A DNA stretch of 64,000 nt from Hyphomicrobiales bacterium (GTDB lineage: Bacteria; Pseudomonadota; Alphaproteobacteria; Rhizobiales; JAJFHR01). Positions 17,502 to 53,807 of the stretch are shown in pieces (positions within the stretch are counted from its first letter, which is position 1; every line of letters begins with the position of its first letter). Below the pieces are notes generated by a model that was not told the origin of the DNA, did no database searches, and saw only the letters and a list, made by a program, of their open reading frames with translations. The stretch is from NCBI GenBank assembly GCA_021775475.1, contig JAJFHS010000053.1, positions 44,271-108,270 of the forward strand, in the 5' to 3' direction. The translations under genes and the position numbers were made by a program.

Positions 17502-17512
17502 GAAATATGCTT

Positions 17513-17547
17513 GGGGTAGTATTTCGCCCTGAGCCGCAAACCACCCC
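17513..17547. repeat. Right copy of the 34-bp inverted repeat pair
   Basis: GGGGTAGTATTTCGCCCTGAGCCGCAAACCACCCC is the inverted partner of 15677-15710. It lies just 3' of the minus-strand gene ending at 17567. Confidence 0.7.
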
Positions 17548-17566
17548 AAAATAGGCTCCATATAAC

Positions 17567-35777: not shown

Positions 35778-38057
35778 ATGGACCAGTCAACACCTCACAA
35801 GCCAAATCGATGGCGACGATTTTCCCAGTGGGACGAGCGGCCTTTAAGGCTGGATAATTTTGCTGTTGATGATCCCGAAAACGGTTTTTCCGCGATGAAC
35901 GGCGCTAACGATCCCCAGCCCGACATTGAAGTTAAGAACGGGCGCATTGTCGTGATGGATGGGGTCGGAGTTGCTGATTTCGATATGATTGACATGTTCA
36001 TTGCCCGCCATCACCTTGATGTCGCCACCGTGGTGGAGACCATGGCAATGCCGTCAGCTGAAATTGCCCGCATGCTGGTGGATATGAACGTGCCGCGAAC
36101 CGATCTGGTAAAGCTCGCCCACGGGCTCACCCCGGCGAAGCTGGCCGAGGTAGTGGCCCAATTAACGGCAATGGAGCTATCCTTTGCATATTCCAAAATG
36201 CGCGCGCGCAAAACACCGGGAAACCAGGGCCACGTCACCAACGCCAAGGATGACCCATTGCAACTGGTGGCTGACGCCGCCACCGCCGTTGCCTTTGGCT
36301 TTGATGAAATTGAAACCACCATGCGGGTGTCACGCAATGCCTGGTCCAATGCTCTTGCCTGTTGCGTCGGTGCCGCCGTCGGGCGCTGGGGCACGTTGTT
36401 TCAGTGTTCGAGTGAAGAAGCCGAAGAGCTGCAAATCGGCATGGCGGGATTTTCATCTTACGCCGAAACCGTTTCTGTCTACGGCACCGAAAAAGCCTTT
36501 ATTGATGGCGATGACACACCCTGGTCCAAGGCATTCCTGACCAGCGCTTATGCTTCACGCGGCATAAAAATGCGCTGCACATCAGGTGCTGCTGCTGAAT
36601 TGCTGATGGGCTTTCATGAAAAAAAATCGCTGCTTTATCTTGAAGCGCGGTGTTTGTGCATGCAAAGGGCCATGGGCGCGCAAGGAACGCAAAACGGCGG
36701 CATTGATGGTGCACCGCTGGCCGCCAGCATAGCCGGTGGCGTGCGTGAGTTGATGGCGGAAAACCTGCTTGCCGTTTGGCTCGATCTCGAATGTGCATCG
36801 GGCAATGATGCGCGTAGTTCAGAATCAGAAATTCGTATTGGCGCCAAAATTTTACCGTACCTAATCTCAGGCTCAGATTTTATCTGCTCGGGCTTTGGCA
36901 CTATCCTAAAATATGACAACTCCTTCAATGCCTCACTGTTCAATGGCGAAGAGCTGGAGGAATTTCTGGTGCTCCAGCGCGATTTCGAAGCCGATGGCGG
37001 CCTCGCCCCGGTTGACGAGGCACGTATTCTCGACGTGCGCAGCCGGGCGGTCGATGCCCTGGCAGCGGTGTTTGAAGAGTTGGATCTGGGCTCACCTACA
37101 GAGCATATGAAAAACAGTGTGGTGGCAGCTTCAGGCTCTGATGAAACCGAAAGCTATATGCCGCGCGACGTTGCATTGATCAGTGACAAGATCAAAACCC
37201 GTGGCATCACTGTCGTCGATGTTATCAAGGCGCTGGCAAAACGCGGGTTTAATCAGGAAGCGGAGCATCTGTTATCGCTGGTAAAACTCAGAGTGTCCGG
37301 GGATTACCTGCAAACCTCGGCAATAATCAGAAATGGCCGCGTCATTTCCGCTATTAACGATGCCAATGATTACAGCGGGCCCGGCAGCGGCTACCAACTT
37401 AGCGAACAACGCCGCGAGGAGATTATCAACATTCGCGATCAACTCACCCGTGATGCTGTTTTGCATAAGGAAAAAACTTTTCAGACACTTGAAACCACAC
37501 AAATCACCTATACAAAAGTAACCGATGCCGAGCGTGGCGAACGCGACGATGAGGTCGTCATCGGCATCAGCCCGGCCTTTGGCCTCAAATTATTCCGTAC
37601 CACTGGCGACCATCCGCTCAGTCAGGTGCTGGCCGAACTGATGGCGGGCATAAAAGCCAAAGGGTTGCGGCCGCGAATTGTGCGTTTTCACCACACCGCT
37701 GACACGTCTTTTTTAGGCTTAAGTGCCGCCAGCCTGTCGGGCTCAGGCATTGGCATCGGCATTCAGGCCAAGGGAACCGCCGTCATTCATCACATCGACC
37801 GCTTGCCGCATAATAATCTCGAGCTGTTTTCCAACGCCCCCATTACCCGGCTTGAACATTACCGCAAGTTTGGCGAAAATGCTGGCGACTATGCCAAGGG
37901 CATTCTGCCAGAACCTGTTGTTGTGCCAACGCGTGGCGAGGCTTTGGGCGCACGGTTTCACGCCCGTGTCGCTCTGATATATGCAATTGAAACCTCACTG
38001 ACAGAGGACGAAAAGCTGCCTGAAGAAATCGACGTTCAGTTTGCGGGAGAAAAGTGA
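35778..38057 (+). CDS. B12-dependent diol/glycerol dehydratase, fused large (PduC-like) + medium (PduD-like) subunits
   Basis: The first ~555 aa are collinear with PduC (FDMIDMFIARH, EIARMLVDMNVPR, SYAETVSVYGTE, DDTPWSKAFL, GDYLQTSAI). After a linker, the C-terminal ~200 aa match the PduD core (VVIGISPAFG, LSGSGIGIGIQAKGTAVIHH). Confidence 0.85.
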   Translation: MDQSTPHKPNRWRRFSQWDERPLRLDNFAVDDPENGFSAMNGANDPQPDIEVKNGRIVVMDGVGVADFDMIDMFIARHHLDVATVVETMAMPSAEIARMLVDMNVPRTDLVKLAHGLTPAKLAEVVAQLTAMELSFAYSKMRARKTPGNQGHVTNAKDDPLQLVADAATAVAFGFDEIETTMRVSRNAWSNALACCVGAAVGRWGTLFQCSSEEAEELQIGMAGFSSYAETVSVYGTEKAFIDGDDTPWSKAFLTSAYASRGIKMRCTSGAAAELLMGFHEKKSLLYLEARCLCMQRAMGAQGTQNGGIDGAPLAASIAGGVRELMAENLLAVWLDLECASGNDARSSESEIRIGAKILPYLISGSDFICSGFGTILKYDNSFNASLFNGEELEEFLVLQRDFEADGGLAPVDEARILDVRSRAVDALAAVFEELDLGSPTEHMKNSVVAASGSDETESYMPRDVALISDKIKTRGITVVDVIKALAKRGFNQEAEHLLSLVKLRVSGDYLQTSAIIRNGRVISAINDANDYSGPGSGYQLSEQRREEIINIRDQLTRDAVLHKEKTFQTLETTQITYTKVTDAERGERDDEVVIGISPAFGLKLFRTTGDHPLSQVLAELMAGIKAKGLRPRIVRFHHTADTSFLGLSAASLSGSGIGIGIQAKGTAVIHHIDRLPHNNLELFSNAPITRLEHYRKFGENAGDYAKGILPEPVVVPTRGEALGARFHARVALIYAIETSLTEDEKLPEEIDVQFAGEK

Positions 38058-38485
38058 TGGACGATGAAAAGCTGGAAGCGCAAGATTACCCGCTAGCCGA
38101 AATGCGTCGTGATCTGGTTCGCGGTCGCCGGGGAAAATCGCTCGATCAACTTGATCTGGCAGCGGTTGAAAACGGCGATGTGGTAATGGAAGATCTTAAG
38201 ATTACCGCCCGCGCCCTCGAATTGCAGGCCAAGATTGCCCGCACCGGAAACCGGGAAAAACTGGCGGAAAATTTTGAACGCGGCGCCGAACTTGTCGAAG
38301 TTCCTCAGGACTACCTGATGGAAATCTACGAATTATTACGACCCGGTCGCGCCCGCGACAAACATGTTTTGGAGAAAGTTGCCGAAAACCTGCGGGCCAC
38401 CTACAATGCCAACCACATGGCCAGATTTATCGAAGAAGCCGCTGAAGTCTATGAGGCGCGCGGCCTCTTTGCATCGAGATTTTAA
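38057..38485 (+). CDS. Diol/glycerol dehydratase small subunit (PduE-like)
   Basis: DYPLAE, DLKITARALELQAKIA, LAENFERGAELVEVPQDYLMEIYELLRPGR match the PduE/DhaB3 pattern. There is a TGATG overlap with the upstream gene. Confidence 0.8.
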   Translation: MDDEKLEAQDYPLAEMRRDLVRGRRGKSLDQLDLAAVENGDVVMEDLKITARALELQAKIARTGNREKLAENFERGAELVEVPQDYLMEIYELLRPGRARDKHVLEKVAENLRATYNANHMARFIEEAAEVYEARGLFASRF

Positions 38486-38504: not shown

Positions 38505-39197
38505 ATGAGCTGGAAAACAGCCTATCGCTCCATTTACTATCAAAACGCACCGGAGCCCGATGATCTTGATCTCAAAGCAAACGAGACCGCCCTTCTGGTC
38601 ATTGATGTACAAAACACCTATCTTGAACGCCCGGATAAAAATACCCTGTCCGGCGAAGCTTTAAGCGAATATGACGCCTGGACACCTTTTCATCAGCGCA
38701 TGAACGAGAGTGTTATTCCCGGAACGGCAGAACTATTGCGATTGTTTCGAGCCAAAAATATCGAATGCTTGTTCGCCCGCATTGCGTGCCATACCGAAGA
38801 TGGCCGTGATCGTTCCTTGAGCCAGAAAATGCCCGGGTGGAACAATTTGCTATTGCCGAAAAATCAAGAGCCTTCGCAAATGGTCGGCGATCTCGCGCCC
38901 GTCGGCGATGAGATTGTCGTTACCAAAACCACAGACTCGGCCCTGACCGGTACCAATCTGAGATTGATACTGCACAACCTTGGCATCAAAAACGTAATTT
39001 GTTGCGGAATTTTTACCGATCAATGCGTCTCGTCAACCGTGAGGAGCCTGGCGGACGAGAGTTTTAACGTGGTGGTTGTCGACGATTGTTGTGCTGCTGG
39101 CAGCGATGAGTTGCATCACAAAGAACTTGAAATCATCAACATGATTTACTGCCACGTGGTATCGCGACAGGAGCTGAAGGAGATGATGGGGCTTTAG
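38505..39197 (+). CDS. Isochorismatase-family cysteine hydrolase (amidase-like)
   Basis: LLVIDVQNTY (Asp) and CCGIFTDQCV (Cys) motifs. AAGGAGGA RBS precedes ATG 38505. The ORF-track start at 38364 overlaps pduE out of frame. Confidence 0.75.
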   Translation: MSWKTAYRSIYYQNAPEPDDLDLKANETALLVIDVQNTYLERPDKNTLSGEALSEYDAWTPFHQRMNESVIPGTAELLRLFRAKNIECLFARIACHTEDGRDRSLSQKMPGWNNLLLPKNQEPSQMVGDLAPVGDEIVVTKTTDSALTGTNLRLILHNLGIKNVICCGIFTDQCVSSTVRSLADESFNVVVVDDCCAAGSDELHHKELEIINMIYCHVVSRQELKEMMGL

Positions 39198-39372: not shown

Positions 39373-40533
39373 ATGCTGAAATACCAACTTTCAAGACGTA
39401 ATTTTCTTCAACAAACTGGCGTGTGGGCCGCTGCGGCCTCATTTGGTGGTCTGCCCAATCTGGCTTATGCCGCTTCGGACCGCTCAAAAGAGCTGAACAT
39501 CTATTGTTGGGAAGGATATAATTCTGATGATGTGCTTGATCCTTTCCGCAAAGAGTTCGCTGCCAAGGTTCGTGCTGAAGGCTTAACCTCTGATCCTGAT
39601 GCCGTAAACAGATTGCGCGCTGGTGAAACCAAAGTCTGGGATATCATCAACGTCAACAATCCCTGGGCGCGCGAAATGATGTATCCTGAAGGCCTGATAA
39701 AACCCATTCCCCGCGAACGCTTTGATCCTTATTATGACAAAATGATGCCAGCCTTCAAGCCACCGTACAAGTGGGCGATGGATGCAAAAGGCAAGGATCT
39801 TCTGGGCATGACCCAGCGCTTTGGCCCGTTCTCCTTTGTCGTCAACACCGATAAAATCAGCCGCAAAATGGCTGAAGACCAGGGCTTCAAACTATTCCTT
39901 GATCCGGCAATGAAGGGCCGTTATGGCATTTTGACATATGATAACTGGAACATTTATCACATGTGCATCGCCGCTGACATCGATCCGTTCAGAAAACATA
40001 CAAAGGCTGAGATTACCAAGTTTGGTGAAGTTGCCAAACAGATCTTCAACGGCGCCAAAAACCTCACCGACGATCTCGTGGCCATGAATCTTGCTCTGAT
40101 CAATGGCGAAATTGATGCTTATTTCACCGGTGGCACCTACACAGCGTCTCCGGCACGACTTGATGGTGCCAAAAATATTCGCGGTATCACGCCGAATTCA
40201 GGCCCCATGGGCGGCAAAGGCGGCATTGTCTGGATTGAACTGACCTCGGTTGTCAACAATCCCAATCCTTCGCCATTGGCAGAGGATTTCCTCGAATATG
40301 TCCAGCGCCCTGATGTTTCCAAAAAAGTCGCCTTCGCTGAAGGCACCTATAATCCCGTTACCCAGATGGGAAGTCAGGAAGTATTGAGCACGTTTTCGAA
40401 AGAAGAACTCGATGCCATTCAATGGGATTCCCTCGAGCAGGAAATGGCTAATTCGGTTGATTATGACATCAACCCTGATTACGCTGAAATGTATGAGTTG
40501 TATTCTGCTGCCAAACGCGAACGTAAAACTTAA
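39373..40533 (+). CDS. ABC transporter periplasmic substrate-binding protein (PotD/PotF-like) with Tat-type signal
   Basis: SRRNFLQQTGVWAAAASFGG signal, 386 aa, polyamine-type SBP character, followed by ATPase and two permease genes. Confidence 0.75.
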   Translation: MLKYQLSRRNFLQQTGVWAAAASFGGLPNLAYAASDRSKELNIYCWEGYNSDDVLDPFRKEFAAKVRAEGLTSDPDAVNRLRAGETKVWDIINVNNPWAREMMYPEGLIKPIPRERFDPYYDKMMPAFKPPYKWAMDAKGKDLLGMTQRFGPFSFVVNTDKISRKMAEDQGFKLFLDPAMKGRYGILTYDNWNIYHMCIAADIDPFRKHTKAEITKFGEVAKQIFNGAKNLTDDLVAMNLALINGEIDAYFTGGTYTASPARLDGAKNIRGITPNSGPMGGKGGIVWIELTSVVNNPNPSPLAEDFLEYVQRPDVSKKVAFAEGTYNPVTQMGSQEVLSTFSKEELDAIQWDSLEQEMANSVDYDINPDYAEMYELYSAAKRERKT

Positions 40534-40617
40534 AATCTCTGAGATAGAGAAACTATCACCGACCAGGGTCAGGGCTCATACAGCTCTGACCCTCAATTAT
40601 ACTAGAGGAAATAAACC

Positions 40618-41694
40618 TTGGTTGAGTTAAGCGAGCCTTTTCTTGAGCTCAATGGCATCACCAAACGCTTTGGCAATTTTGTCGCGGTGGATGATGTCAA
40701 TCTTGAAATTACAGAAGGTGAGTTTTTCACGCTTGTAGGGCCATCAGGATCCGGCAAAACCACCATGATACGGATGCTGGTTGGCATGGACGCACCTTCT
40801 GACGGCGAAATGCGCCTGCAGGGCCGGGTTATGAACGATTTGCCGGCAAACAAACGTCCAACCTGCATGGTGTTTCAGTCGCTGGCCCTGTTTCCGCACA
40901 AATCCGTTGGTGAAAACATCGAGTTTTCGATGAAAATCACCGGAAAAGATAAAGTCAAAAGACGCGCGCGAGTTGACCAGTTGATGGAGCAACTACGGCT
41001 GCCCTTATCTTATTACGAAAAAAGCGTTACTCAATGTTCCGGTGGTGAACGCCAGCGCATAGCCCTGGCCCGCGCCCTGGCGTTCGATCCGCAAATTCTG
41101 TTTTTCGATGAACCCTTGTCAGCACTTGATTTCAGGTTGCGTAAAGCGCTGGAAAAAGAGCTTAAAGATATTCACCGCGAAACCGGTAAGACATTTGTCT
41201 ACATCACTCATTCGCTTGAAGAAGCCATGGTCATGTCAGACCGCATCGCCATTATGCGCGAAGGCCGCATCGTCCAGATTGGCACGCCACATGAAATTTA
41301 TAACAATCCCAAAAATAAATTCGTCGCCCAGTTTATGGGGGAAGTGAACACCCTTTCGGTGGAAAAAGCTGGTGAGAATACGCTTCGGGTTACCGGTTTT
41401 GATGACATTTTTACGGTCACGGATGATCTTTCCGATTTCACCACCGGGTTCTTGATCATTCGCCCCGAGGTTATGAAAATTGGCCGATCAGCTGCTGACA
41501 TGAAAAACAAAATCAAGGGCATCGCCTTTAATGATTACGCGCTTGGCTCGCGGGTGCAATATCAAATCAGAATTGAGCACTTTGACGAACCGTGGCTGGT
41601 AGAGCGTCTGCAGGACGAACCCTATGAAGGCCAGCGCGGCGACACCGTCGACATTGGCTGGCGACCTGAAGATTCGATCCTGGTGAGTAATTAA
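40618..41694 (+). CDS. ABC transporter ATP-binding protein (PotA-like)
   Basis: Walker A GPSGSGKTT, signature CSGGERQR, Walker B ILFFDEP. A TTG start is preceded by AGAGGAAA. Confidence 0.9.
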   Translation: MVELSEPFLELNGITKRFGNFVAVDDVNLEITEGEFFTLVGPSGSGKTTMIRMLVGMDAPSDGEMRLQGRVMNDLPANKRPTCMVFQSLALFPHKSVGENIEFSMKITGKDKVKRRARVDQLMEQLRLPLSYYEKSVTQCSGGERQRIALARALAFDPQILFFDEPLSALDFRLRKALEKELKDIHRETGKTFVYITHSLEEAMVMSDRIAIMREGRIVQIGTPHEIYNNPKNKFVAQFMGEVNTLSVEKAGENTLRVTGFDDIFTVTDDLSDFTTGFLIIRPEVMKIGRSAADMKNKIKGIAFNDYALGSRVQYQIRIEHFDEPWLVERLQDEPYEGQRGDTVDIGWRPEDSILVSN

Positions 41695-41699
41695 TCAAA

Positions 41700-42575
41700 A
41701 TGGCAAAGACCTCACAGAGCAATATGAGCAGCTGGTTGAAACAGCCAGGCGTTCTGGCCGCCCTGCCCGCTTCATTGTTCCTGTTAATCGGATTTGCCGG
41801 GCCACTTTTATTGGTGGTGGCATACAGCTTCATGCCGTCGAAAACGTTTACGTTGCTGCAGGCACCGACAATTGAAAACTACTCGTCAATAATCAGCGAC
41901 AGCTATTACATATCATTTTTCTGGTCGCTGGCGATGGCGCTGACAACCGTGGTTTTGTTGTTCATCATTTGCTACCCGATTGCCTACGGCATGGCCAAAT
42001 TATTCAACAAGTGGGCCAACTTGGTGACCGCGCTTATTGCCGTTCCCATTCTTATTTCCGAAAACATCAGACTGTTTGGCTGGGTTTTGATCTTGCTCAA
42101 AAACGGTGTTTTTGATGGCTCAATGCAAAGCCTGTTTGGTCTGTCGATCTCCGGTCTCCTGTTTACAGTACCCGCAATCACCCTCGGGCTGGTCTATGTC
42201 TACCTGCCGTTTATGCTGTTCCCGCTGGTTATCGGCATTTCCATGGTTCCTGAAACCCTGAAAGAAGCAGCATCTGATCTTGGTGCCACACGCTGGCAGA
42301 TATTTCGCGAAATTGAGTTGCCACTGTCGATGCCCGGGTTGATGATTGGCGGCATTTTAACGTTTGTGCTGGTGTTGGGATCTTTGGCCGAGGCTAAAAT
42401 TCTTGGCGGACAGGCCATTGTCATGATTGCTGACGATATTGAATCGGCCTTCACCTTCGCTCAGAACTGGCCCAAGGGTTCAGCCTTGTCAGTGCTGCTG
42501 ATAGCTCTTTCCGGCATCATTGTTTTCTTATTATTCAGGCGCGTTGACCTTGACCGCGTCATTGGCAGGCGGTGA
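41700..42575 (+). CDS. ABC transporter permease (PotB-like)
   Basis: 6-TM permease with the EAA-type loop EAASDLGATRWQIFREIELP. Confidence 0.85.
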   Translation: MAKTSQSNMSSWLKQPGVLAALPASLFLLIGFAGPLLLVVAYSFMPSKTFTLLQAPTIENYSSIISDSYYISFFWSLAMALTTVVLLFIICYPIAYGMAKLFNKWANLVTALIAVPILISENIRLFGWVLILLKNGVFDGSMQSLFGLSISGLLFTVPAITLGLVYVYLPFMLFPLVIGISMVPETLKEAASDLGATRWQIFREIELPLSMPGLMIGGILTFVLVLGSLAEAKILGGQAIVMIADDIESAFTFAQNWPKGSALSVLLIALSGIIVFLLFRRVDLDRVIGRR

Positions 42576-42579
42576 GGAT

Positions 42580-43398
42580 ATGAAAGCATCACGTTCACAA
42601 AACCTTTCGCGCCGCTTTATAATCCTGTGGACAGGGGTGGTCATTGCCTTTTTGTATGTGCCAATGATAGCTGTTGTCCTGGCATCATTTTCCAAGCAAC
42701 GCTATTTCAAATTCCCCATCCAGAGCTGGACCGACAAGTGGTATCAAAAAGCTTTTTCTTCACTGTCAGTACGCGAATTATTATGGACATCCTTGTCGGT
42801 CGCCGCATTGGTCACTATCATCTCGGTGGTACTGGCTTTTTTTGGTGCGCTGGCTTTTGCCAGGTATGACTGGAAGGGACGCAAGCTCTATCAGCGTTTG
42901 ATTTTACTGCCGATTTTCTTTCCTCAAGCCGTACTTGGCCTGGCAATGTTATTGTGGTTCTCGGCCATTGGCGTTATCACCAGTTGGCAGACAGCGGTGT
43001 TTGCACATCTGGTGTGGATTACCCCCATTGTCATTTTGATCATGTCTATACAGGTTTACAGCTTTGATCCGGCACTGGAAGAAGCAGCGTATGACCTCGG
43101 TGCCACGCGCTGGCAGGTGTTGACGGAAATAACCCTGCCAATCCTGTCGCCGGGGATAATATCGGGTGCAATTTTTGCATTTTTACTGTCGTGGGGAAAT
43201 TTCCCCTTATCACTTTTTACCACCGGCGCCGACCAGACCATCCCTGAATGGCTCTATGCCAAAATGGTGTCGGGCTACACCCCCATGGTGCCGACACTGG
43301 GGTCTTTAACCTTATCAAGTGCCGCTGTATTTTTGTTGATCGCCTATATTATCTGGCTGGCAATAAGCGCGCGGCAGCGGCGAATGGAAAACAGATAG
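42580..43398 (+). CDS. ABC transporter permease (PotC-like)
   Basis: EAAYDLGATRWQVLTEITLP loop. ATG 42580 is 4 nt after the upstream stop and is preferred over the overlapping start at 42520. Confidence 0.85.
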   Translation: MKASRSQNLSRRFIILWTGVVIAFLYVPMIAVVLASFSKQRYFKFPIQSWTDKWYQKAFSSLSVRELLWTSLSVAALVTIISVVLAFFGALAFARYDWKGRKLYQRLILLPIFFPQAVLGLAMLLWFSAIGVITSWQTAVFAHLVWITPIVILIMSIQVYSFDPALEEAAYDLGATRWQVLTEITLPILSPGIISGAIFAFLLSWGNFPLSLFTTGADQTIPEWLYAKMVSGYTPMVPTLGSLTLSSAAVFLLIAYIIWLAISARQRRMENR

Positions 43399-43416: not shown

Positions 43417-44181
43417 ATGCTGACATCAATAGCAGGCAGATCAGTCATCGTAACCGGTGCAAGCAAAGGCATCGGCAAAGGAATTGCCCGCGTATTTGCC
43501 AATCAGGGCGCAAAAGTCCTGGTGGTCTCGCGCACACTTGATGAGGCGCAAGCCGTAGCCGAAGAAATCGGCAATGGAGCTTCCGGGTTTTCCGCCGATA
43601 TTGCCAGTTGGGAGCAAACTCAAGCCATGGCCGAGGCCGCGGTTGAGCGCAATGGCGGGCTTGATATTCTATGCGCCAATGCCGGCATTTATCCCCAAAC
43701 CAATATTGAAGATATGGACCCGGAAGAATGGGATCAGGTAATGGACACCAACCTCAAGGGTACGTTCCTGTCGGTTAAAGCCTGTCTGCCGCACTTGAAA
43801 AAATCCGATCAGGGCCGTGTCATCCTGACATCATCAATCACCGGGCCCGAGACCGGTTTTCCCGGCTGGTCACATTACGGCGCCAGCAAATCCGGCCAGC
43901 TTGGGTTTATGCGCACCGCCTGCATCGAACTGGCAAAACACGCCATCACCATGAATGCGGTTTTACCCGGCAACATCTATACCGAAGGCCTCGATGATCT
44001 GGGCGATGACTATCTCGCAACCATGGCCGCATCCATTCCGTTGAAAAAAATTGGTGCCGTCGAAGATATCGGCAATGCGGCGTTGTTTCTGGCATCCAAG
44101 GAAGCCAATTATATCACCGGCCAGACAATCATTGTCGATGGTGGCCAGATATTACCGGAATCTCTCGAAGCGCTGGAATAA
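43417..44181 (+). CDS. Short-chain dehydrogenase/reductase (candidate amino-alcohol dehydrogenase)
   Basis: TGASKGIGKGIA, NAG and YGASK motifs. The substrate assignment rests on context only. Confidence 0.8.
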   Translation: MLTSIAGRSVIVTGASKGIGKGIARVFANQGAKVLVVSRTLDEAQAVAEEIGNGASGFSADIASWEQTQAMAEAAVERNGGLDILCANAGIYPQTNIEDMDPEEWDQVMDTNLKGTFLSVKACLPHLKKSDQGRVILTSSITGPETGFPGWSHYGASKSGQLGFMRTACIELAKHAITMNAVLPGNIYTEGLDDLGDDYLATMAASIPLKKIGAVEDIGNAALFLASKEANYITGQTIIVDGGQILPESLEALE

Positions 44182-44374: not shown

Positions 44375-45439
44375 CTAGGTTAGTTGCGCCCGCAGCTGTC
44401 GCGGCGACACGCCGGTCCAGCGGCGTACTGCGCGTGAAAATGCGCTGAGTTCTGAATAGCCCAGCAGAAAAGCTATCTCAGAAAACGGCAGATGACGTTG
44501 TTTGATGTACATCAGCGCCAATTCGTGCCGGGTGGTTTCGATCAGGTCCTTGTAAGCCAGGCCTTCGTGCGCCAGTTCACGCCGAATGACGGAAGCTGAT
44601 AATTTTAAACTTAAAGCCACCTGCTCCATAGAGGGATAGCCATCGGGCAACTGCGTGCGAATGGTATTTTGTATGCGGCCTATCAAAGATACCGGCTGGT
44701 CGTTTTCCTTACCCACCGTCTCCAGACACGTCTGCATGATCGTCATCAATGTCAGATCGCGACCCGGCATTGAGCGTGTCATTGTATCGGGTTTGAACAA
44801 CAGGGCGTTCACGGGTTGAGAAAAATACACCGGCGCGGAAAATGCGGTTTCATGATCTTTCCAGTTTTCCGGTTTGGCGTGTTCAAAATGAACTTCTTCA
44901 GGTATCCAGCCCGCGCCACAGCCTTCGCGTATAACGTTTAAAAACATGCCAAGCGAAAGTTCAGCATCCTGGCGGCGCTCGATAATATCGGGTGCCTGAA
45001 TTTGATATTCCAGCCGCATCAACCCGCTGTCATCTTCACACAACGACATGATCGACGATTCCTGATGATAACGAAAAAGCCCCACCAAATTTGCCAGTGC
45101 AACGCCTAATGTGGGTGAAGAAATTGCAGCATAACCCCACAGGCCTAAGTCTTTTGGTGAAAACTGATTGCCAAACCACAGGCCGAAATTATCGTGTTTG
45201 GATATACGTGAAGCTTCTTCAAACAAACGGCAAAATGAAGACAGGCTCAACTTCAAGGTAGGCTCGCCCGCCATTTCCGGGGCAATGCCAGCGTGACCAA
45301 AGGTACGATCAACATCACCACCCATTTTCTCGATGAACTCAACCATGCCTGTGGCAGCAGCGGCAAGCACAGCAGGGTTTGAGCCGGCAACACTTTGCCC
45401 GCAAACCGGACGTTCGAGATAGTGGGTAGCAATATTCAC
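44375..45439 (-). CDS. AraC family transcriptional regulator (EutR/OruR-like architecture)
   Basis: C-terminal double HTH (LLGYSELSAFSRAVRRWTGVSPRQLR) and a ~240-aa N-terminal sensor domain. Confidence 0.85.
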   Translation of the reverse strand: MNIATHYLERPVCGQSVAGSNPAVLAAAATGMVEFIEKMGGDVDRTFGHAGIAPEMAGEPTLKLSLSSFCRLFEEASRISKHDNFGLWFGNQFSPKDLGLWGYAAISSPTLGVALANLVGLFRYHQESSIMSLCEDDSGLMRLEYQIQAPDIIERRQDAELSLGMFLNVIREGCGAGWIPEEVHFEHAKPENWKDHETAFSAPVYFSQPVNALLFKPDTMTRSMPGRDLTLMTIMQTCLETVGKENDQPVSLIGRIQNTIRTQLPDGYPSMEQVALSLKLSASVIRRELAHEGLAYKDLIETTRHELALMYIKQRHLPFSEIAFLLGYSELSAFSRAVRRWTGVSPRQLRAQLT

Positions 45440-45531: not shown

Positions 45532-46545
45532 TTAGCTGAAATCTGCAATATACCTTCGACACAAGGCATCGGTTTCGCGACTGTATGTCACCCCCATCGA
45601 CTGGGCGAGATCGGTTTCCGAGTGCGATCCGATCCAGGCCACCAGCAGCAATCTTCGCAACATGACGAAAGTGGGGATTTCCGCTTCATCTTCTTGCGGT
45701 AAATCGATGATTTTACGATAGCCCTTGACCCAGGATTTGAGCAGGTCGGGGACTTCCGGCCGGGTTTCAAAGAACGACACCGTTGTGGCGCAATCATACA
45801 TCAGCCAGCTGAACCCACAGTCGTCAAAATCAATAACCTTGGTAGTGTCACCATCAATAAGCAGGTTTGCCAGCCGCATGTCGCAATGTATCAGACCAAA
45901 ACGCTCAGATGATTTTCCAAATTCCGCCAATCGATGCTCAATCAAATCGACGGTTTTGCCAAACAGCTCGATGCGCTCAACGTCCAGACCCATGCCATCG
46001 CGCCATCGCCCCCAATGAGGATTTGCCCCTAGAGAGGTGTCAAAATCCCAGGTAAGGCGCTCAAAACCCTGCGGCAGTTCCCACGATTTCACATGCGCAT
46101 GCATGCGCGCAGCCGTTTCTCCCAACACTTCAAAGGGTGCGCGCAAATCATCTTCTTCCTCAGAAGGCTCAATGCCGCTTTCCCATTCAAACAGCACCAC
46201 CTGGCGGGGATTAGACATGCTCGCATGGCTCACCGTTTGAATGTCTTCACCATCGAGCCCCGCTACAACTGCCGGTGTAATGGCGGTCCCGCTTGCCCGC
46301 AAGGCTTTGGCCCAGGCAAGCTCTGAAGCGATGGCGTTTTTGCTATGATATCCTTCACGATGAACCCGCAAGGCCCAGCACTGCTGTGAATGAGGAGCTT
46401 CGATCCTGTAGGTTGCATTTTCTGACAGGTTAATCATGCGGGCACTAGCACCCGCAGGCAGTGCAAAACGGGCAAGAGAGGCCTCTGCAAGATGTTGCAG
46501 GCAAATCAACTGTTCTTCGTGAGAAAGCGCGTCAAATGCAGACAT
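45532..46545 (-). CDS. APH-fold phosphotransferase (candidate amino-alcohol kinase)
   Basis: Brenner motif HCDMRLANLLID and the metal-binding IDFDDCG motif. 337 aa. Confidence 0.8.
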   Translation of the reverse strand: MSAFDALSHEEQLICLQHLAEASLARFALPAGASARMINLSENATYRIEAPHSQQCWALRVHREGYHSKNAIASELAWAKALRASGTAITPAVVAGLDGEDIQTVSHASMSNPRQVVLFEWESGIEPSEEEDDLRAPFEVLGETAARMHAHVKSWELPQGFERLTWDFDTSLGANPHWGRWRDGMGLDVERIELFGKTVDLIEHRLAEFGKSSERFGLIHCDMRLANLLIDGDTTKVIDFDDCGFSWLMYDCATTVSFFETRPEVPDLLKSWVKGYRKIIDLPQEDEAEIPTFVMLRRLLLVAWIGSHSETDLAQSMGVTYSRETDALCRRYIADFS

Positions 46546-46602
46546 AAATTGTTCCCGGCACCTTTATCTTTAACCTAAAGAATACAACGATAAAGAGCGC
46601 CT

Positions 46603-46702
46603 CACTTGACAGTAAAACATTTACATTTGACACAGCATCAGCGTTTGTCACAAGTACGCCACCGCCCTACCCTGTCAAGTTTATATCCCTATGTGTCAAG
46701 TG
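46603..46702. promoter_or_regulatory. Divergent control region with five copies of a YAYTTGACA motif at ~21-bp phasing (two on +, three on -)
   Basis: CACTTGACA 46603, CATTTGACA 46624, TGTCACAAGTA 46646, TGTCAAGTT 46673, TGTCAAGTG 46694. The outermost pair forms a perfect 9-bp inverted repeat. Confidence 0.55.
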
Positions 46703-46749
46703 CTTAAGAGGTATCTCGGGCATGCTGAAGACAATGAGAGGGTCGTCTT

Positions 46750-48021
46750 GTGAGCATCGAAAAACTGGAATTCCTGGAGCAGTCGAAAACCTTCTGGAAT
46801 CCGAACAAAACCCAGTTCTGGCAGGATGTCGGCGTTGATCTGGTGATCGACCGCCGCGAAGGTTATTGCCTCTATGACATGGATGGCAAGCGCCTGATTG
46901 ATGTGCACCTCAATGGCGGCACCTACAATCTCGGTCATCGCAATGCCGAACTCATAGAAGTCCTCAATGCCGGTGCCAAACGCTTTGACATGGGCAATCA
47001 TCACTTTCCGGCGCTCGCGCGCACCGCTCTGGCCGAAGCGCTGGCCAAATGTACGCCTGACGGGCTGCAATACACGATTTACGGTGCAGGTGGCGCCGAA
47101 GCAGTTGAACTGGCGATTAAATCCGCCCGTCACGCCACCCAAAAGCGCAAGATTGTCTCGATTATCAAAGCCTATCACGGCCACTCCGGTCTGGCGGTCA
47201 AAACCGGCGATGAGCGCTTTTCCAAGACATTTTTGTCCGAAGACACAGTTGGTGAATTTATACAGGTACCGTTCAATGACCTTGAAGCGATTGAAAAGGC
47301 TCTAAAGGGTAAGGATGTTGCCGCCATCATTATGGAAACAATCCCGGCAACCTACGGATTTCCGATGCCGCACGAGGGCTACCTGCCTGCCGTCAAAAGC
47401 CTGTGCGAACGCTATGATGCCCTGTATATCGCTGACGAAGTACAAACCGGCCTCATGCGTACGGGTGAACTCTGGGGCATCACCAAATATGGTGTCACAC
47501 CGGACATTATGGTGATTGGCAAGGGCATTACCGGCGGCATGTATCCGATTTCATGTTGTGTCGTCAACGAGCGCGCTGGCCAATGGCTCAAGCAGGACGG
47601 CTTTGCCCATATGTCAACTGCGGGTGGGGCCGAACTTGGCTGTATTGTCGCGTTGAAAGTGCTCGAAATCACCCAGCGACCCGAAGTTGCCTCCATGGTG
47701 GCTTATATCTCCGATTTCATCCGTGCAGGGCTCGATGATATTCAGGCACTTTACCCCGATTTTTTCACCGGCATTCGCCAGAACGGTGTCATTATGGGGT
47801 TGGAATTTAATGACCCAGAAGGTGCCAAGCCGGTGATGAGGCATCTTTATGAACATGGTGTCTGGGCAATTTTCTCGACCCTTGATCCCTCCGTGTTGCA
47901 GTTCAAACCCGGCATTCTCATGACCCAGAGCCTGTCTGAAGACCTGCTGGCCCGCGTCGAAGTCGCCATCGGTCTGGCGGCTAAAGAAGTTATGGGCAGC
48001 GGACGCAGAGGCAAGATGTAA
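46750..48021 (+). CDS. Class-III aminotransferase-fold PLP enzyme (candidate amino-alcohol O-phosphate phospho-lyase)
   Basis: DEVQTGLMRTGELWG, and GKGITGG with the PLP lysine. GTG start with GAGAGG upstream. The phospho-lyase role is inferred from pairing with the kinase. Confidence 0.8.
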   Translation: MSIEKLEFLEQSKTFWNPNKTQFWQDVGVDLVIDRREGYCLYDMDGKRLIDVHLNGGTYNLGHRNAELIEVLNAGAKRFDMGNHHFPALARTALAEALAKCTPDGLQYTIYGAGGAEAVELAIKSARHATQKRKIVSIIKAYHGHSGLAVKTGDERFSKTFLSEDTVGEFIQVPFNDLEAIEKALKGKDVAAIIMETIPATYGFPMPHEGYLPAVKSLCERYDALYIADEVQTGLMRTGELWGITKYGVTPDIMVIGKGITGGMYPISCCVVNERAGQWLKQDGFAHMSTAGGAELGCIVALKVLEITQRPEVASMVAYISDFIRAGLDDIQALYPDFFTGIRQNGVIMGLEFNDPEGAKPVMRHLYEHGVWAIFSTLDPSVLQFKPGILMTQSLSEDLLARVEVAIGLAAKEVMGSGRRGKM

Positions 48022-49601
48022 TGGACCAGGCCATCGCCAACCTCGTTGACATTTCCGCATCCCCCGCCGCCATGCATGCCGCAGCCGACATGGTGCTGGA
48101 ACGGGCGAGATGGGCATCGCAGGTATTTCAACGTTATGACCGCGACACAACGCTTGCCATTGCCGACGCGGTAGCAAAGGCTGCCCACGACAATGCGGCA
48201 AAATATGGTGATTGGGCAGTTAAGGAAACCGGCTTTGGCGTAGCTGATCACAAGACGCTAAAAAACCAACTTACCGCTAAGCCTCTGGTTGATTATTATC
48301 GCGATCGAGATTTTGTTAATCCGAGATTTGATGCCGAAAAAAATATTATCGAAGTGCCCAAACCCGCCGGTGTGGTGTTTGCGCTTGCGCCCTCCACCAA
48401 TCCGATTTCAACCATCTACTTCAAGGTTTTATGTGCCCTGATGACCCGCAATGCCATCGTCATCAGCCCGCATCCCGCCGCCCGTGAATGCTCCGTTGAT
48501 GCCGTCAACACATTGATAAAAGCCGCCGAAGATGCCGGCGCACCGGAGGCGGTAATTCAGGTCATAGAGCATCCCACTCTGGCGCTAATTGATGAATTTA
48601 TGGGCTCGGAAAAAACCAATGTCATTCTCGCCACCGGCGGCAGTGCCATGGTGCGGGCAGCGTACTCATCCTCCAACCCGGCCATTGGTGTCGGCCCCGG
48701 CAATGCACCGGTTTTTGTCGAGGCAAGTGCTGATCTGAAACAGGCGGCTGCCATGATTGTCGAGAGTAAATCATTCGATAATTCAGTTTTGTGCACCAAT
48801 GAATCGGTGCTGATCACCCTGGCGGAAATATCTCAAGCGCTTTTGCGCGAGCTTGGCCGCAACAAATGCCATATCTGCAAACCCGACGAAGTTGAATTGC
48901 TGCGCCGCTATCTGTTTCATGATCGCGGCTTTAACGTCGAAGCGCTTGGCCGCGATGCTACATGGATTGCCGAACAAGCCGGGTTCAAGGTTCAGCGCAA
49001 CACCAAAATCCTGCTCACGCCCATAGATAAAATTGGTGTCGGTGAAGTATTGTCGCGCGAAAAACTGTGTCCGGTACTAGGCTATTATGTCGCCACCAGT
49101 GTAACCCAGGCCATAACTCAGGCCCGCGCCTTGTTGCGCTATACCGGAGCGGGACATTCGGCTGCCATCCACTCAAACGACAATCAGACAATTATGGATT
49201 ATGCCGCCGGTGTCGAAGTTTACCGCGTTATTGTCAATGCACCGTGCAGTCAAGGTGCTGCCGGATTTGCCACCAACCTTGCACCTACCTTCACCATTGG
49301 CACCGGCTATTTTGGCCGCTCCTCAGTGGGCGAGAATGTCGGCCCACAGCATCTGGTAAACTGGACCCGTATCGCCTGGAACAGCCAGGCCAGTGGCAAT
49401 ATTAATGATTTTCAAACAGCAAGGCTCAACCACCGTGGCAAGTTGCCAAAAGCACCTGCCGATGGTGTGCCGGGACAATCGCGGGTAAGACGCGAGGTGT
49501 CTGATAACTCTCCCCGGACACCGGCGCGCACCGACCCTGAATTACGCGAAGAAATTCGCCGCATTATTGCCGAAGAGCTGCGCTCGGCGCTGAAGGATTG
49601 A
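48021..49601 (+). CDS. CoA-acylating aldehyde dehydrogenase (EutE/PduP family) with a C-terminal encapsulation-peptide-like helix
   Basis: ALDH fold with the catalytic Cys in FDNSVLCTNES. A Pro/Arg/Ser-rich linker is followed by ELREEIRRIIAEELRSAL at the extreme C-terminus. TAATG overlap with the upstream gene. Confidence 0.85.
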   Translation: MDQAIANLVDISASPAAMHAAADMVLERARWASQVFQRYDRDTTLAIADAVAKAAHDNAAKYGDWAVKETGFGVADHKTLKNQLTAKPLVDYYRDRDFVNPRFDAEKNIIEVPKPAGVVFALAPSTNPISTIYFKVLCALMTRNAIVISPHPAARECSVDAVNTLIKAAEDAGAPEAVIQVIEHPTLALIDEFMGSEKTNVILATGGSAMVRAAYSSSNPAIGVGPGNAPVFVEASADLKQAAAMIVESKSFDNSVLCTNESVLITLAEISQALLRELGRNKCHICKPDEVELLRRYLFHDRGFNVEALGRDATWIAEQAGFKVQRNTKILLTPIDKIGVGEVLSREKLCPVLGYYVATSVTQAITQARALLRYTGAGHSAAIHSNDNQTIMDYAAGVEVYRVIVNAPCSQGAAGFATNLAPTFTIGTGYFGRSSVGENVGPQHLVNWTRIAWNSQASGNINDFQTARLNHRGKLPKAPADGVPGQSRVRREVSDNSPRTPARTDPELREEIRRIIAEELRSALKD

Positions 49602-49604
49602 TTT

Positions 49605-50225
49605 ATGGCTGATTTGCGTTCCTTCATATTCATCGACCAGTTGCAGCCGCAAACCATGTCTTATATGGCATCGTGGATGCGCGGCTCCCTGCCGCGCGCG
49701 CATGTGGCAGCCCAGATCATTGAGGTGGCTCCGGGTCTGGATATCGAAAACCTCACCAATATTGCTCTCAAGCACGCTGGTGTTCACGCCGGAATTCTGG
49801 TGGTCGAGCGCCAGTTCGGCTATCTCGAGTTTCATTCCCGCGATACGTCTGCTGTAAGGGAAGCTGCACAAGCGGTGTTAGATAATCTTGGTGCTGAAGC
49901 AGATCATGCCATGGCGCCGAAGATACTCGGATCCAAAATTGTCACGCGTATCGATAACCAGCACGCTTTTTTGATCAACCGCAACAAGTTGGGTTCTATG
50001 GTTCTGGGCGGAGAATCGCTGTATCTTCTCGAAATACAACCGGCATCTTATGCAATTCTGGCAACAAATGAAGCCGAGAAAGCCGCCAATATCAAGGTGG
50101 TTGATTATCGCATGATCGGTGCCAACGGGCGGGTTTATCTCTCAGGCAAAGAATCCGAAATCCGCAGCGCGCGCGAAGCCGCTGAAGCCGCCCTTGGTGG
50201 TTTTGATCAGGGAGAAGCTGCATGA
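49605..50225 (+). CDS. BMC-T shell protein (tandem BMC domains)
   Basis: 206 aa containing two BMC-like halves (EVAPGLDIENLTNIALKHA ...; ILATNEAEKAANIKVV ...). Confidence 0.8.
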   Translation: MADLRSFIFIDQLQPQTMSYMASWMRGSLPRAHVAAQIIEVAPGLDIENLTNIALKHAGVHAGILVVERQFGYLEFHSRDTSAVREAAQAVLDNLGAEADHAMAPKILGSKIVTRIDNQHAFLINRNKLGSMVLGGESLYLLEIQPASYAILATNEAEKAANIKVVDYRMIGANGRVYLSGKESEIRSAREAAEAALGGFDQGEAA

Positions 50226-50635
50226 CCACAGATGCCGTCAGATCCCTGATCCGAGAAGTGCTGGCCGAAGAACTGGGGCGCGTTGCCCGCGAGCGCTCAA
50301 CAACCAAAGAAACTGTCTCGATACAGACTAATAAGGATTTGCAGGCGCTGGTTCTCCATATAGTGGAAATAGCCCGCGACAAATCCATGCGCGACCGCAT
50401 CATCGCAGGAGATCATGTTTTTGTGCTTGAGACCCCGTCGGGTGTATCCGTGGCAAAAACCCCTGCGCCAAACGCCAGCGACGTGGAGCAGATAACAAAA
50501 GGTTTTTTGTCCGAGCGTGCAATAGAAGCCCTTCCCGCCAATACCCGTGTGGTGCAGCTTGGACACGGAGTGCGTTTTACACCGCTTGCCCGCGACCGGT
50601 TGAGACAGCGGAAGATAACAGTTGAAAGGATATAA
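50222..50635 (+). CDS. BMC-locus hypothetical protein with an N-terminal encapsulation-peptide-like amphipathic helix
   Basis: 137 aa. The N-terminal AVRSLIREVLAEELGRV shares the (I/V)(L/I)AEEL core with the AldDH C-terminus. ATGA-coupled to the preceding shell gene. The C-terminal domain is unrecognised. Confidence 0.6.
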   Translation: MTTDAVRSLIREVLAEELGRVARERSTTKETVSIQTNKDLQALVLHIVEIARDKSMRDRIIAGDHVFVLETPSGVSVAKTPAPNASDVEQITKGFLSERAIEALPANTRVVQLGHGVRFTPLARDRLRQRKITVERI

Positions 50636-50637
50636 TT

Positions 50638-50877
50638 ATGGTCAGAGGACGCGTTACCGGCAGACTTTGGGCAACCAAGCGCATTGACACACTCCCCCAG
50701 GGCGCTTTGTTGAATGTAGAGCTGGAAAACGGCACACAGATCATCGCACTGGACCCGCTTGGCTGTGGCGAAGGTGAAGATGTGCTGGTTACTCAAGGCT
50801 CCGTTGCCGCCGGTTATTTTGACGATATCAAAGCCCCCATCGATGCGCTGATTATCGGCTCCATCGATGCCGACTAA
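50638..50877 (+). CDS. BMC-P pentameric vertex protein (EutN/CcmL/PduN family)
   Basis: 79 aa. MVRGRVTGRLWATKR ... ALDPLGCGEGEDVLVTQGS ... IDALIIGSID matches the EutN family pattern. Confidence 0.9.
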   Translation: MVRGRVTGRLWATKRIDTLPQGALLNVELENGTQIIALDPLGCGEGEDVLVTQGSVAAGYFDDIKAPIDALIIGSIDAD

Positions 50878-50917
50878 TAAACATTACGCCATTTTTTAAT
50901 CAAAAGGAGAAAGACAA

Positions 50918-51196
50918 ATGTCAAACGAAGCAATAGGAATGATTGAGACCAGAGGGTTCGTAGCCGCTTTAGCTGCCGCTGACGCCATGGTGAAAGCAGC
51001 GAACGTAAAAATTGTCTCGCGTGAAGAAGTCGGTGCCGGTCTGGTATCCGTGGTTATTCAGGGCGACGTCGGCGCGGTTAAGGCTGCCACCGAAGCCGGT
51101 GCTGAAACTGCCGGACAAGTTGGTGATCTGATATCCGTTCATGTGATTCCACGCCCGCACACAGATCTCGGCAAACATTTTACGGCTAAAAAATAA
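50918..51196 (+). CDS. BMC-H hexameric shell protein (PduA/EutM-like)
   Basis: [27 protein letters not shown] ... GDVGAVKAA is the canonical BMC-H sequence. GGAG RBS. Confidence 0.95.
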
Positions 51197-51217
51197 CCTT
51201 TTGATAACCGGATTTCC

Positions 51218-51240
51218 GCCGGACCCAAATAAGGTCCGGC
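51218..51240 (+). other. Intercistronic stem-loop GCCGGACC-CAAATAA-GGTCCGGC after the BMC-H gene
   Basis: 8-bp perfect GC-rich stem, 22 nt after the BMC-H stop, with no T tail. Confidence 0.4.
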
Positions 51241-51289
51241 TGCTGAAGGCGCAGCAAAGGGATGGCTTTGCCAAAATGAGTGATTACCA

Positions 51290-51913
51290 ATGACTGAACT
51301 ACGCGTTTACCTGCCCATAGAGGACCTGCAACCGCAGTTTGCAGCTTACATGGCCACGCCAACGCGCGCGCGTGGCTATCCGCCATTTGTCGGTGACCAC
51401 AGTCTCATTATTGAAGTGGCACCCGCACTGGCCATCCATCGCGTCACCGACCTGGCCTTAAAGGCTGCACCCGATCTTGAACCGGGAATATTGTTCACAG
51501 AGCGTCATTTTGGCCTGCTTGAATTGCACTCGAGCAAACGTGAAACGGTTATGGCAGCCGGGCAGGCAATTCTCAAAGGCATCAATTGCAAAGCCGAAGA
51601 CCAGCTCAAGCCGCAAATCCTGTTCACCGATATCATCGAAAACCTCTCCGACCAGCATGCAGTCATCTACAATCGCATGCGTGAAGCCTCAATGATCCTG
51701 CCCGGTCAATCCTTGTTGCTCTATGAAATGGCCCCGGCCCTGTTCGCCGCCATGGCCGCAAATGAGGCCGAAAAATCCGCCCCCGACATAACGCTGGTGG
51801 ATGTCCAGATGATGGGGGCATCCGGCCGTATTTCCATGGCGGGAAAAACCGCCGACCTGCAAGTGGCGCAAAAATGCATTAGCCAGGTTCTTGGCGCTGT
51901 TGCCGGCAGGTAG
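51290..51913 (+). CDS. BMC-T shell protein (tandem BMC domains), paralog of 49605-50225
   Basis: 207 aa. LRVYLPIEDLQPQFAAYMA is parallel to LRSFIFIDQLQPQTMSYMA, and AMAANEAEKSA is parallel to ILATNEAEKAA. Confidence 0.8.
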   Translation: MTELRVYLPIEDLQPQFAAYMATPTRARGYPPFVGDHSLIIEVAPALAIHRVTDLALKAAPDLEPGILFTERHFGLLELHSSKRETVMAAGQAILKGINCKAEDQLKPQILFTDIIENLSDQHAVIYNRMREASMILPGQSLLLYEMAPALFAAMAANEAEKSAPDITLVDVQMMGASGRISMAGKTADLQVAQKCISQVLGAVAGR

Positions 51914-52355
51914 CGGCAACAGCTGCATTTTTCAGACCGCCGACGCTATTTCGAGCCACTATATTGAATTAGGCTGACATCTATTTTCACGGCATGTCTT
52001 GCTTAAACCAAACCCCTCCGCCATCAAAGCGCAGCACAACCTGTTGTTACAGGTTGATTTTCCGGGATTCACGATGGATTCACGCAATCTGAAAGATTGT
52101 GTTCAATGAGCACAAGGCAGTTGCCCTGCCCCGGAGGAAAATGCAACACCTTATAGACTGCCGGATTAATTGAACCTGCCAGGCGTTCGTCTGCAAGTTT
52201 CCGCATCGATTGTTAAACAACTCATGATCCTAATCAAAACCACCCTCCCTAGGCACTGGTTCTCCCGCCAGATGATGAATGGTCATGGGGTCCCGTTTTC
52301 AGAATTTTCAGAAAGTTTTCGATTATGCCGTTAACGTGTGATGAAATAAAAACTA

Positions 52356-53738: not shown

Positions 53739-53807
53739 TTACTTTGGTAAATTGTGGAACAATTGATTTTTGTTCAGTTTAGTTGAATTAATTTATTCGG
53801 GGGGTGG

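Follow-up and report, generated by a model that had tools for sequence, protein, structure and literature searches.

A natural alpha–beta fusion of an adenosylcobalamin-type diol dehydratase, with no reactivase encoded nearby, beside an RMM2/AAUM2-type microcompartment locus in a Hyphomicrobiales bacterium

A 64-kb stretch of DNA from a Hyphomicrobiales bacterium (assembly GCA_021775475.1, contig JAJFHS010000053.1; the whole stretch is called the window here) carries, at 35778–38485, two genes for a dehydratase of the adenosylcobalamin (AdoCbl) type, in which the large (alpha) and medium (beta) subunits are fused into one open reading frame (ORF) and the small (gamma) subunit follows as a separate gene. 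Judged from its sequence, this alpha–beta plus gamma enzyme is intact and has kept its catalytic apparatus, and the two genes most likely encode a functional AdoCbl-dependent diol dehydratase, a predicted activity, that belongs to a described fused clade without a DdrAB/PduGH-type reactivase. We think it on balance probable that the enzyme would act as an optional second aldehyde feeder of a neighboring microcompartment of the RMM2/AAUM2 type, and that it would do so without a DdrAB-type reactivase. A fusion without a reactivase is already in the literature, and the window holds another member of that group, nothing different in kind; what is added here is a change at two positions of the substrate pocket (D310 and A345), a conserved set of operon partners and stronger synteny evidence, not a new kind of system.

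For industry, B12-dependent diol and glycerol dehydratases matter as a route to 3-hydroxypropionaldehyde, 1,3-propanediol and 3-hydroxypropionate, and two things restrict their use, suicide inactivation and dependence on a reactivase driven by ATP. A clade found in nature without the reactivase, and changed at exactly the two residues that engineers mutate in order to slow inactivation, would be a ready-made test of reactivase-free operation. The system also bears on whether RMM2/AAUM2 compartments use a neighboring dehydratase: the synteny described below speaks for a real link in one clade, with the dehydratase as an optional part.

The fused dehydratase and its active site

The fused gene (35778..38057, forward strand) encodes 759 amino acids. 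A first-pass annotation of this DNA had described the ORF as collinear with PduC and then with the PduD core, and both parts are recovered by profile searches: the Pfam large-subunit family Dehydratase_LU (PF02286) covers residues 11–556 with 703.7 bits and spans profile positions 2–548 of 552, the medium-subunit family Dehydratase_MU (PF02288) covers residues 599–711 with 86.7 bits against a cut-off of 27, and the NCBIfam large-subunit model NF011979 reaches 824.6 bits, above its cut-off of 788. The protein can thus be divided into an alpha-like part (residues 11–556, nucleotides 35808–37445), a linker (residues 557–578, nucleotides 37446–37511) and a beta core (residues 579–753, nucleotides 37512–38036). 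The gamma subunit (38057..38485, forward strand; 142 residues from the ATG at 38057, with an in-frame GTG at 38054) matches Dehydratase_SU (PF02287) with 146.4 bits against a cut-off of 25, and the narrower NCBIfam subfamily models for the medium and small subunits stay under their cut-offs (186 against 248 and 168.6 against 196, respectively). The coupling of the two genes by a TGATG overlap, also proposed at first pass, holds as well: the DNA at 38051–38062 reads AAAGTGATGGAC, with GTGATGG at 38054–38060, and the TGA stop of the fusion (38055–38057) and the ATG of the gamma gene (38057–38059) share the single base at 38057. The best solved match of the fusion is an engineered fused Klebsiella enzyme (PDB 9VI2) together with its relatives; the alignment is nearly gapless over residues 11–748, and the linkers are of similar length.

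Residues of the active site were mapped from Salmonella PduC, using the numbering of the Klebsiella oxytoca diol dehydratase. Ten of the 12 positions compared are identical (Q141, H143, E170, E221, T222, S224, Q296, D335, S362 and F374), and the catalytic residues, whose loss the first-pass annotation had named as a ground for abandoning the assignment, are retained. The two differences are S301, which is D310 in the fusion, and Q336, which is A345; D310 is found in 86/86 fused homologs and A345 in 85/86, the homolog from Shinella having Thr instead. Neither S301 nor Q336 is the catalytic base or a calcium ligand. In the enzyme of K. oxytoca, both are in contact with the substrate's C3 substituent (PMC7674605), and the inactivation rate constant (kinact) with glycerol falls from 1.15 per min to 0.22 per min in the S301A variant and 0.081 per min in the Q336A variant, both of which are still active (PMC7674605, Table 1).

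The dehydratase operon and the microcompartment locus

The dehydratase is the first gene of a co-directional operon that continues with the gamma subunit, a cysteine hydrolase, an amine-type ATP-binding cassette (ABC) importer and a short-chain dehydrogenase (SDR) resembling aminopropanol dehydrogenases, all on the forward strand. The hydrolase (38505..39197), of the isochorismatase family, retains all three residues of the Asp-Lys-Cys triad, and among solved structures it comes closest to biuret hydrolase, a cysteine hydrolase with a generic name and a RutB-type amidohydrolase. The importer (39373..43398) has four parts, namely a PotD/PotF-like periplasmic binding protein with a twin-arginine (TAT) signal (39373–40533), an ATPase (40618–41694) and two permeases (41700–42575 and 42520–43398). 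The only solved relatives of the binding protein are polyamine binders, and in some relatives of the operon a membrane permease of ~500–550 amino acids takes the place of the ABC importer. The SDR (43417..44181) closes the operon, and its best solved matches are 6CI8 and 6CI9 (1.5e-87), which we take to be the RMM (S)-1-amino-2-propanol dehydrogenase of M. smegmatis.

The first-pass annotation had treated the dehydratase as an enzyme without a compartment. This view does not hold, as it missed a microcompartment locus at 45532–51913, which begins 7.5 kb downstream of the dehydratase, and the operon of the dehydratase itself ends with the ortholog of the RMM aminopropanol dehydrogenase. The locus starts with an APH-family kinase (45532..46545, reverse strand) whose best solved match is 6EF6 (8e-83), presumably the (S)-1-amino-2-propanol kinase of M. 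smegmatis. On the forward strand follow an enzyme of the class-III aminotransferase fold (46750..48021), the signature enzyme of RMM loci, which we infer to be an amino-alcohol-phosphate phospho-lyase; an acylating aldehyde dehydrogenase of the EutE/PduP-like type (48021..49601) with an amphipathic, encapsulation-peptide-like helix, EIRRIIAEELRSALK, at its C-terminus; a CcmP-like BMC-T protein (49605–50225), matched by PDB 5L39 (“RMM microcompartment shell protein MSM0275”) at 1.9e-88; a 137-amino-acid protein with an encapsulation-peptide-like N-terminus (50222–50635); a BMC-P protein (50638–50877); a BMC-H protein (50918–51196); and a second CcmP-like BMC-T protein (51290–51913). The shell set is therefore one BMC-H, one BMC-P and two BMC-T(dp) proteins, and a strong terminator-like hairpin (51896..51923, forward strand) marks the end of the shell operon. 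The solved matches of the SDR, the kinase and the BMC-T protein tie the neighbors of the dehydratase to an RMM compartment.

By its sequence, the locus is complete, and we assign it to the RMM2/AAUM2 type rather than to RMM1 from the host taxon, the gene content, the dehydratase nearby and the lack of an Abhydrolase_3 gene. This type was set apart from RMM1 by its diol dehydratase genes and was originally called “RMM2/PDU2” by Axen et al. (2014), who also raised the question of a bifunctional RMM2 compartment (PMC4207490). It was renamed RMM2/AAUM2 in the supplement of Sutter et al. (2021), which covers 32 loci from Proteobacteria and Marinimicrobia (PMC8217296).

Among the genes of the locus, the one for the 137-amino-acid protein has no Pfam or NCBIfam match, and it is kept in every RMM2 locus that we sampled. 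It has a conserved encapsulation-peptide-like N-terminal helix, DAVRSLIREVLAEEL, and an invariant TPLARD motif at its C-terminus, a region that is weakly PduM-like (PF15953 at E = 0.008 for a homolog; hhalign probability of 12%). As a side observation, conservation of the class-III aminotransferase is unusually high, with 84–99% identity to its 120 best database matches, and the corresponding range for the fused dehydratase is 73–95%.

Comparative synteny

We compared the surroundings of the dehydratase in 80 species loci, from Dongia, Hyphomicrobium, Methyloceanibacter, Aestuariivirga, Bauldia, Rhodobiaceae and many metagenome-assembled genomes, counting for each feature only those loci with enough flanking sequence. 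The small subunit lies next to the dehydratase in 75/77 loci, the cysteine hydrolase directly 3' of it in 57/73, the ABC binding protein is present in 41/63, and an RMM-type SDR is found downstream and co-directional in 51/52. A kinase is encoded within 10 kb in 39/50 loci. For shell genes within 10 kb, the count of 10/49 is a lower bound, because in the gene order of the window the shell starts 11.5 kb away.

The association is not tied to a single arrangement, as the same components occur in at least four different gene orders. A Shinella plasmid carries the fused dehydratase, the gamma subunit, the SDR, a phosphotransferase and the aminotransferase with no shell genes. In a second sampling, which started from the aminotransferase side and in which two places gave no call, the exact order of the window recurred at two others, in a 5.3-Mb genome and on an 886-kb contig, and we found a complete-looking RMM2 locus without a dehydratase (L090), where a hydrolase gene follows the shell genes, and one further place with no dehydratase within 10 kb. 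Conversely, some fused dehydratases, such as that of L004, have no RMM genes within 10 kb. The dehydratase is thus a real but optional add-on to RMM2-type loci. Since the importer, the SDR and the hydrolase are also found in the dehydratase-free locus L090, they are part of the amino-alcohol pathway and not specific to the dehydratase. The hydrolase in particular, which we had considered as a dehydratase-specific partner, has an ortholog that closes the shell operon of L090 (15206–15889), and that candidacy was rejected.

Proposed role and alternative readings

We infer the substrate, the link to the compartment and the repair strategy of the enzyme as follows. The dehydratase would convert a three-carbon vicinal diol into an aldehyde, with 1,2-propanediol as the simplest candidate. 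Work on M. smegmatis has reportedly shown that a branch made up of a kinase and a phospho-lyase produces propionaldehyde from 1-amino-2-propanol, and the kinase and putative phospho-lyase of the window may supply the same aldehyde in parallel, which the encapsulation-peptide-tagged aldehyde dehydrogenase would then oxidize. Because the dehydratase is optional, a parallel feeder fits better than an obligatory step of the pathway. A damaged cofactor would not be handled by a DdrAB-type chaperone in this scheme; suicide inactivation would instead be tolerated or avoided through the change of S301 to D310 and of Q336 to A345, the covalent tether between alpha and beta could help in this, and protein turnover or an unrelated route of cofactor exchange may add to repair. 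An engineered fused enzyme does lose activity more slowly in cell lysate, and natural fused dehydratases had already been flagged as candidates (PMC7674605).

Several points weigh against this proposal. The absence of a reactivase is seen in one 64-kb window of the source genome, and the synteny figures come from the nearest relatives of the window enzyme (71–86% identity) and hold for this clade only. The searchable literature yielded no measurements of activity, of cofactor binding or of inactivation kinetics on a member of the fused clade. In the S301A/Q336A double mutant of the K. oxytoca enzyme, the Km for 1,2-propanediol is raised 40-fold (PMC7674605), and a carboxylate such as that of D310 beside the C3 methyl group of 1,2-propanediol would be unexpected in a pocket specialized for propanediol. 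Finally, neither dehydratase chain has an encapsulation peptide recognizable by alignment or by a hydrophobic-moment scan of the termini; a cytosolic location of the enzyme would mean that its aldehyde arises outside the shell.

This last point is a weak test, as the class-III aminotransferase also lacks an encapsulation peptide. In BLAST comparisons, Salmonella PduD residues 49–222 align to residues 579–753 of the fusion and PduE residues 39–166 to residues 8–136 of the small subunit; PduD 1–48, which comprises the targeting helix and linker, and PduE 1–38 are unmatched, so that both N-terminal extensions of the Pdu type are missing. The first-pass annotation had proposed that the PduD extension was replaced by the fusion linker. 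Its absence stands, but a specific replacement by the linker does not, since DhaB2 of glycerol dehydratase, a short chain of 194 residues that aligns from residue 21, also lacks a targeting extension. A retained targeting helix, suggested by an NCBIfam medium-subunit alignment that begins at model position 6 (residue 544 of the fusion), was rejected because this stretch overlaps the conserved C-terminus of alpha and the BLAST match to PduD starts at 49. The scan found encapsulation-peptide-like helices at two places only, the C-terminus of the aldehyde dehydrogenase and, in the 137-amino-acid protein of the shell operon, the N-terminus. The helix at the alpha–beta junction (residues 547–562) is weakly amphipathic and may conceivably serve as an internal encapsulation signal.

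The main alternative to a propanediol-type feeder is that the clade is specialized for a vicinal diol whose C3 bears a polar or cationic group, such as 3-amino-1,2-propanediol, or for glycerol held by Asp310, with the importer and the hydrolase delivering or unmasking the substrate. We regard this as possible but not probable; it is Asp310, which argues for such a C3 group, that makes it the principal competitor. The replacement of the two C3-contacting residues by Asp and Ala throughout almost the entire alphaproteobacterial clade is in its favor, as are the polyamine-binding relatives of the importer's binding protein, the substitution of a ~500–550-residue permease for the ABC system in some relatives, and a hydrolase that has kept its triad and whose nearest solved relatives act on ureido or amide bonds. 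The presence of importer, SDR and hydrolase in the dehydratase-free locus L090 argues in the other direction, and so does the optional occurrence of the dehydratase, which suits a parallel entry better than an obligatory step.

A bolder version of our own proposal would make the alphaproteobacterial fused clade truly reactivase-independent, with the Asp310/Ala345 pocket and the tether conferring resistance to inactivation or retuning the enzyme to a diol with an amino- or hydroxy-substituted C3, and would give the AAUM/RMM2 compartment a second, dedicated signature enzyme, possibly encapsulated piggy-back. We put this forward tentatively and consider it rather unlikely; were it true, the AAUM/RMM2 compartment would be bifunctional.

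It could also be that the adjacency is coincidental and that the window encodes a free cytosolic glycerol or diol dehydratase unrelated to the compartment, as the 2021 catalog suggested. Its supplement reports PDU enzymes near 4/32 RMM2 loci and calls them “unlikely to be an important part” (PMC8217296), some fused dehydratases such as that of L004 stand apart from RMM genes within 10 kb, and the dehydratase chains show no encapsulation peptide. However, the dehydratase is co-directional with and upstream of an RMM-type SDR almost without exception (51/52 loci) and has the kinase close by in most loci (39/50), and this association survives several rearrangements and persists on the Shinella plasmid that has no shell genes. 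We therefore find a chance adjacency quite improbable, and prefer the reading of the dehydratase as an optional feeder of the compartment.

Absence of a reactivase

The first-pass annotation reported neither a DdrAB/PduGH-like reactivase nor an adenosyltransferase gene in the window, and both negatives are upheld over the full 64 kb. A Pfam scan of every plausible gene of at least 130 amino acids in the window gave no PF08841 reactivase, no EutA and no PF01923 or PF02572 adenosyltransferase. An annotated pdu operon of Salmonella supplied PduG, PduH, PduO, PduS, PduL and PduQ as tblastn queries, which returned no match in the window, nor in 85 other dehydratase loci, among them the 80 species loci with flanks of up to 10 kb on each side. 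The PduG query picks up archaeal plasmid homologs with as little as 55% identity, which shows adequate sensitivity and gives the negative result meaning.

A conventional reactivase and adenosyltransferase might still be encoded elsewhere on the chromosome, in which case the missing reactivase would be an effect of the window, which shows 64 kb of the genome. Adenosyltransferases of the CobO/PduO type are usually encoded with genes for cobalamin synthesis or methylmalonyl-CoA mutase. Such a gene is therefore to be expected elsewhere in the genome, which counts in favor of this explanation. On the other hand, canonical systems have the reactivase directly 3' of the dehydratase, no PduG or PduH homolog lies within the flanks of any of the 80 species loci, and dhaF and dhaG are reported absent genome-wide from three carriers of the fusion with complete genomes, namely M. 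loti, M. opportunistum and Hyphomicrobium (table in PMC4777399). Taken with these, the chance that a conventional reactivase is encoded elsewhere appears slim.

Candidates for an unconventional reactivase within the window were considered and rejected. The 137-amino-acid protein of the shell operon resembles neither PduH nor PduD nor the beta domain, as a small reactivase subunit of the PduH/DdrB kind would, and the intact triad of the cysteine hydrolase points to an enzyme and not a chaperone; the triad is kept in ~60 orthologs. A linkage to cobalamin synthesis genes was likewise dropped, as cbi/cob homologs lie within 10 kb in just 2/85 related loci, both from Dongia. No Rfam family, including the cobalamin riboswitch, matched at its gathering score anywhere in the window.

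Reality of the fusion and its lineages

An artefact of assembly or a frameshift, as raised at first pass, or a pseudogene in decay is hardly conceivable as the origin of the fusion; nothing in its favor was found, and against it stand the facts that an identical protein is found on an independent public assembly, that 85/86 homologs give a single uninterrupted alignment over both domains, that more than 7,600 relatives exist among 5.8 billion proteins searched, the best 120 of which all contain both domains at lengths of 721–787 amino acids (~760), and that conservation is dense, with a mean column identity of 80% and invariant catalytic residues. The nearest named relatives come from Rhizobiaceae, Hyphomicrobiaceae and Dongia.

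A library of clusters at 50% identity contains three full-length fused representatives. The closest to the window protein, P0121 (759 amino acids, 61% identity), has Asp at the S301 site and Thr at the Q336 site. P0123 (749 amino acids, 46% identity), from a high-GC lineage that on composition we would guess to be actinobacterial, keeps Ser at the S301 site and changes only Q336, to Ala, whereas the window enzyme changes both. P0128 (829 amino acids, 41% identity) represents a third lineage with the canonical Ser and Gln, and has a 50-residue low-complexity extension at its N-terminus. The P0128 lineage suggests that alpha–beta fusions may have arisen more than once. Because P0123 and P0128 keep Ser, Asp310 marks the alphaproteobacterial clade and not fusions generally, and our idea of it as a mark of all fusions proved false.

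Comparison with described systems

Fused dhaB1-dhaB2 genes are known from Mesorhizobium, Mycobacterium and Hyphomicrobium, and their active site has been described as “slightly different” (Martins-Pinheiro et al. 2016; PMC4777399). A natural fusion together with the missing reactivase was published in 2010, as cited in a later paper (Liu et al., in PMC7674605). The window enzyme shares with the fused DhaB1-DhaB2 systems (M. loti mll6722/6721, M. opportunistum, Hyphomicrobium sp. and Mycobacterium) the single alpha–beta ORF, the separate gamma gene directly 3' of it, the lack of dhaF and dhaG (for the window, locally), the altered active site and an origin in aerobic Alphaproteobacteria. In comparison with Salmonella PduCDE, the alpha part is 47% identical to PduC, and the PduD and PduE cores are matched at 40% and 42% identity, respectively; all but two of the calcium-binding, substrate-binding and catalytic residues of PduCDE and the K. 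oxytoca enzyme (PDB 1DIO family) are the same. It differs from PduCDE in having alpha and beta fused, in the lack of encapsulation peptides on beta and gamma, and in the S301D and Q336A changes. Unlike a Pdu system, the window has no PduGH, PduO, PduS, PduL, PduQ or Pdu shell genes, and its shell genes are of the RMM type.

Residues 11–748 of the fusion correspond to residues 3–744 of the 754-residue engineered read-through fusion of Klebsiella pneumoniae DhaB123 (PDB 9VI2–9VIJ), whose wild-type subunits likewise have no targeting extensions. However, the Klebsiella operon has the DhaF/DhaG reactivase, the Klebsiella fusion is engineered whereas that of the window is natural, and the pockets differ at two positions. 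With RMM2/AAUM2 loci, the window shares the SDR, the APH kinase, the class-III aminotransferase, the acylating aldehyde dehydrogenase, one BMC-H, one BMC-P and two double-stacking BMC-T proteins, a proteobacterial host and diol dehydratase genes nearby. The 2021 catalog judged an important role of the dehydratase unlikely; in the clade sampled here, it lies upstream of the RMM-type SDR nearly always and near the kinase in most cases, and RMM2 loci without it exist as well.

Neighboring genes and minor observations

Between the dehydratase operon and the microcompartment locus lies a gene for a QhpR-like regulator of the AraC family (44375..45439, reverse strand). Within the dehydratase operon of a Dongia locus (L003), a gene resembling class-I glutamine amidotransferases and peptidase C26 separates the hydrolase gene from that of the ABC binding protein. 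A spacing of ~0.7 kb between these two genes is seen there and in L007–L009, L015, L018, L020, L029, L039 and L044, which suggests a comparable insert in the loci other than L003; an insert of the L003 type may be a sign that these species use gamma-glutamylated amines as intermediates.

A promoter scan of the window was uninformative, with 22 sites against 15.9 expected. Directly 3' of the shell operon, at 52356–55844, are genes for a YcaO-domain protein of 460 amino acids and a 678-residue protein resembling BTAD/TPR regulators. At 15927–18667, a gene for an Apea-like HEPN domain protein of 452 amino acids adjoins one for a DUF4915 protein on the opposite strand; the two may form a defence-type gene pair, unrelated to the dehydratase.

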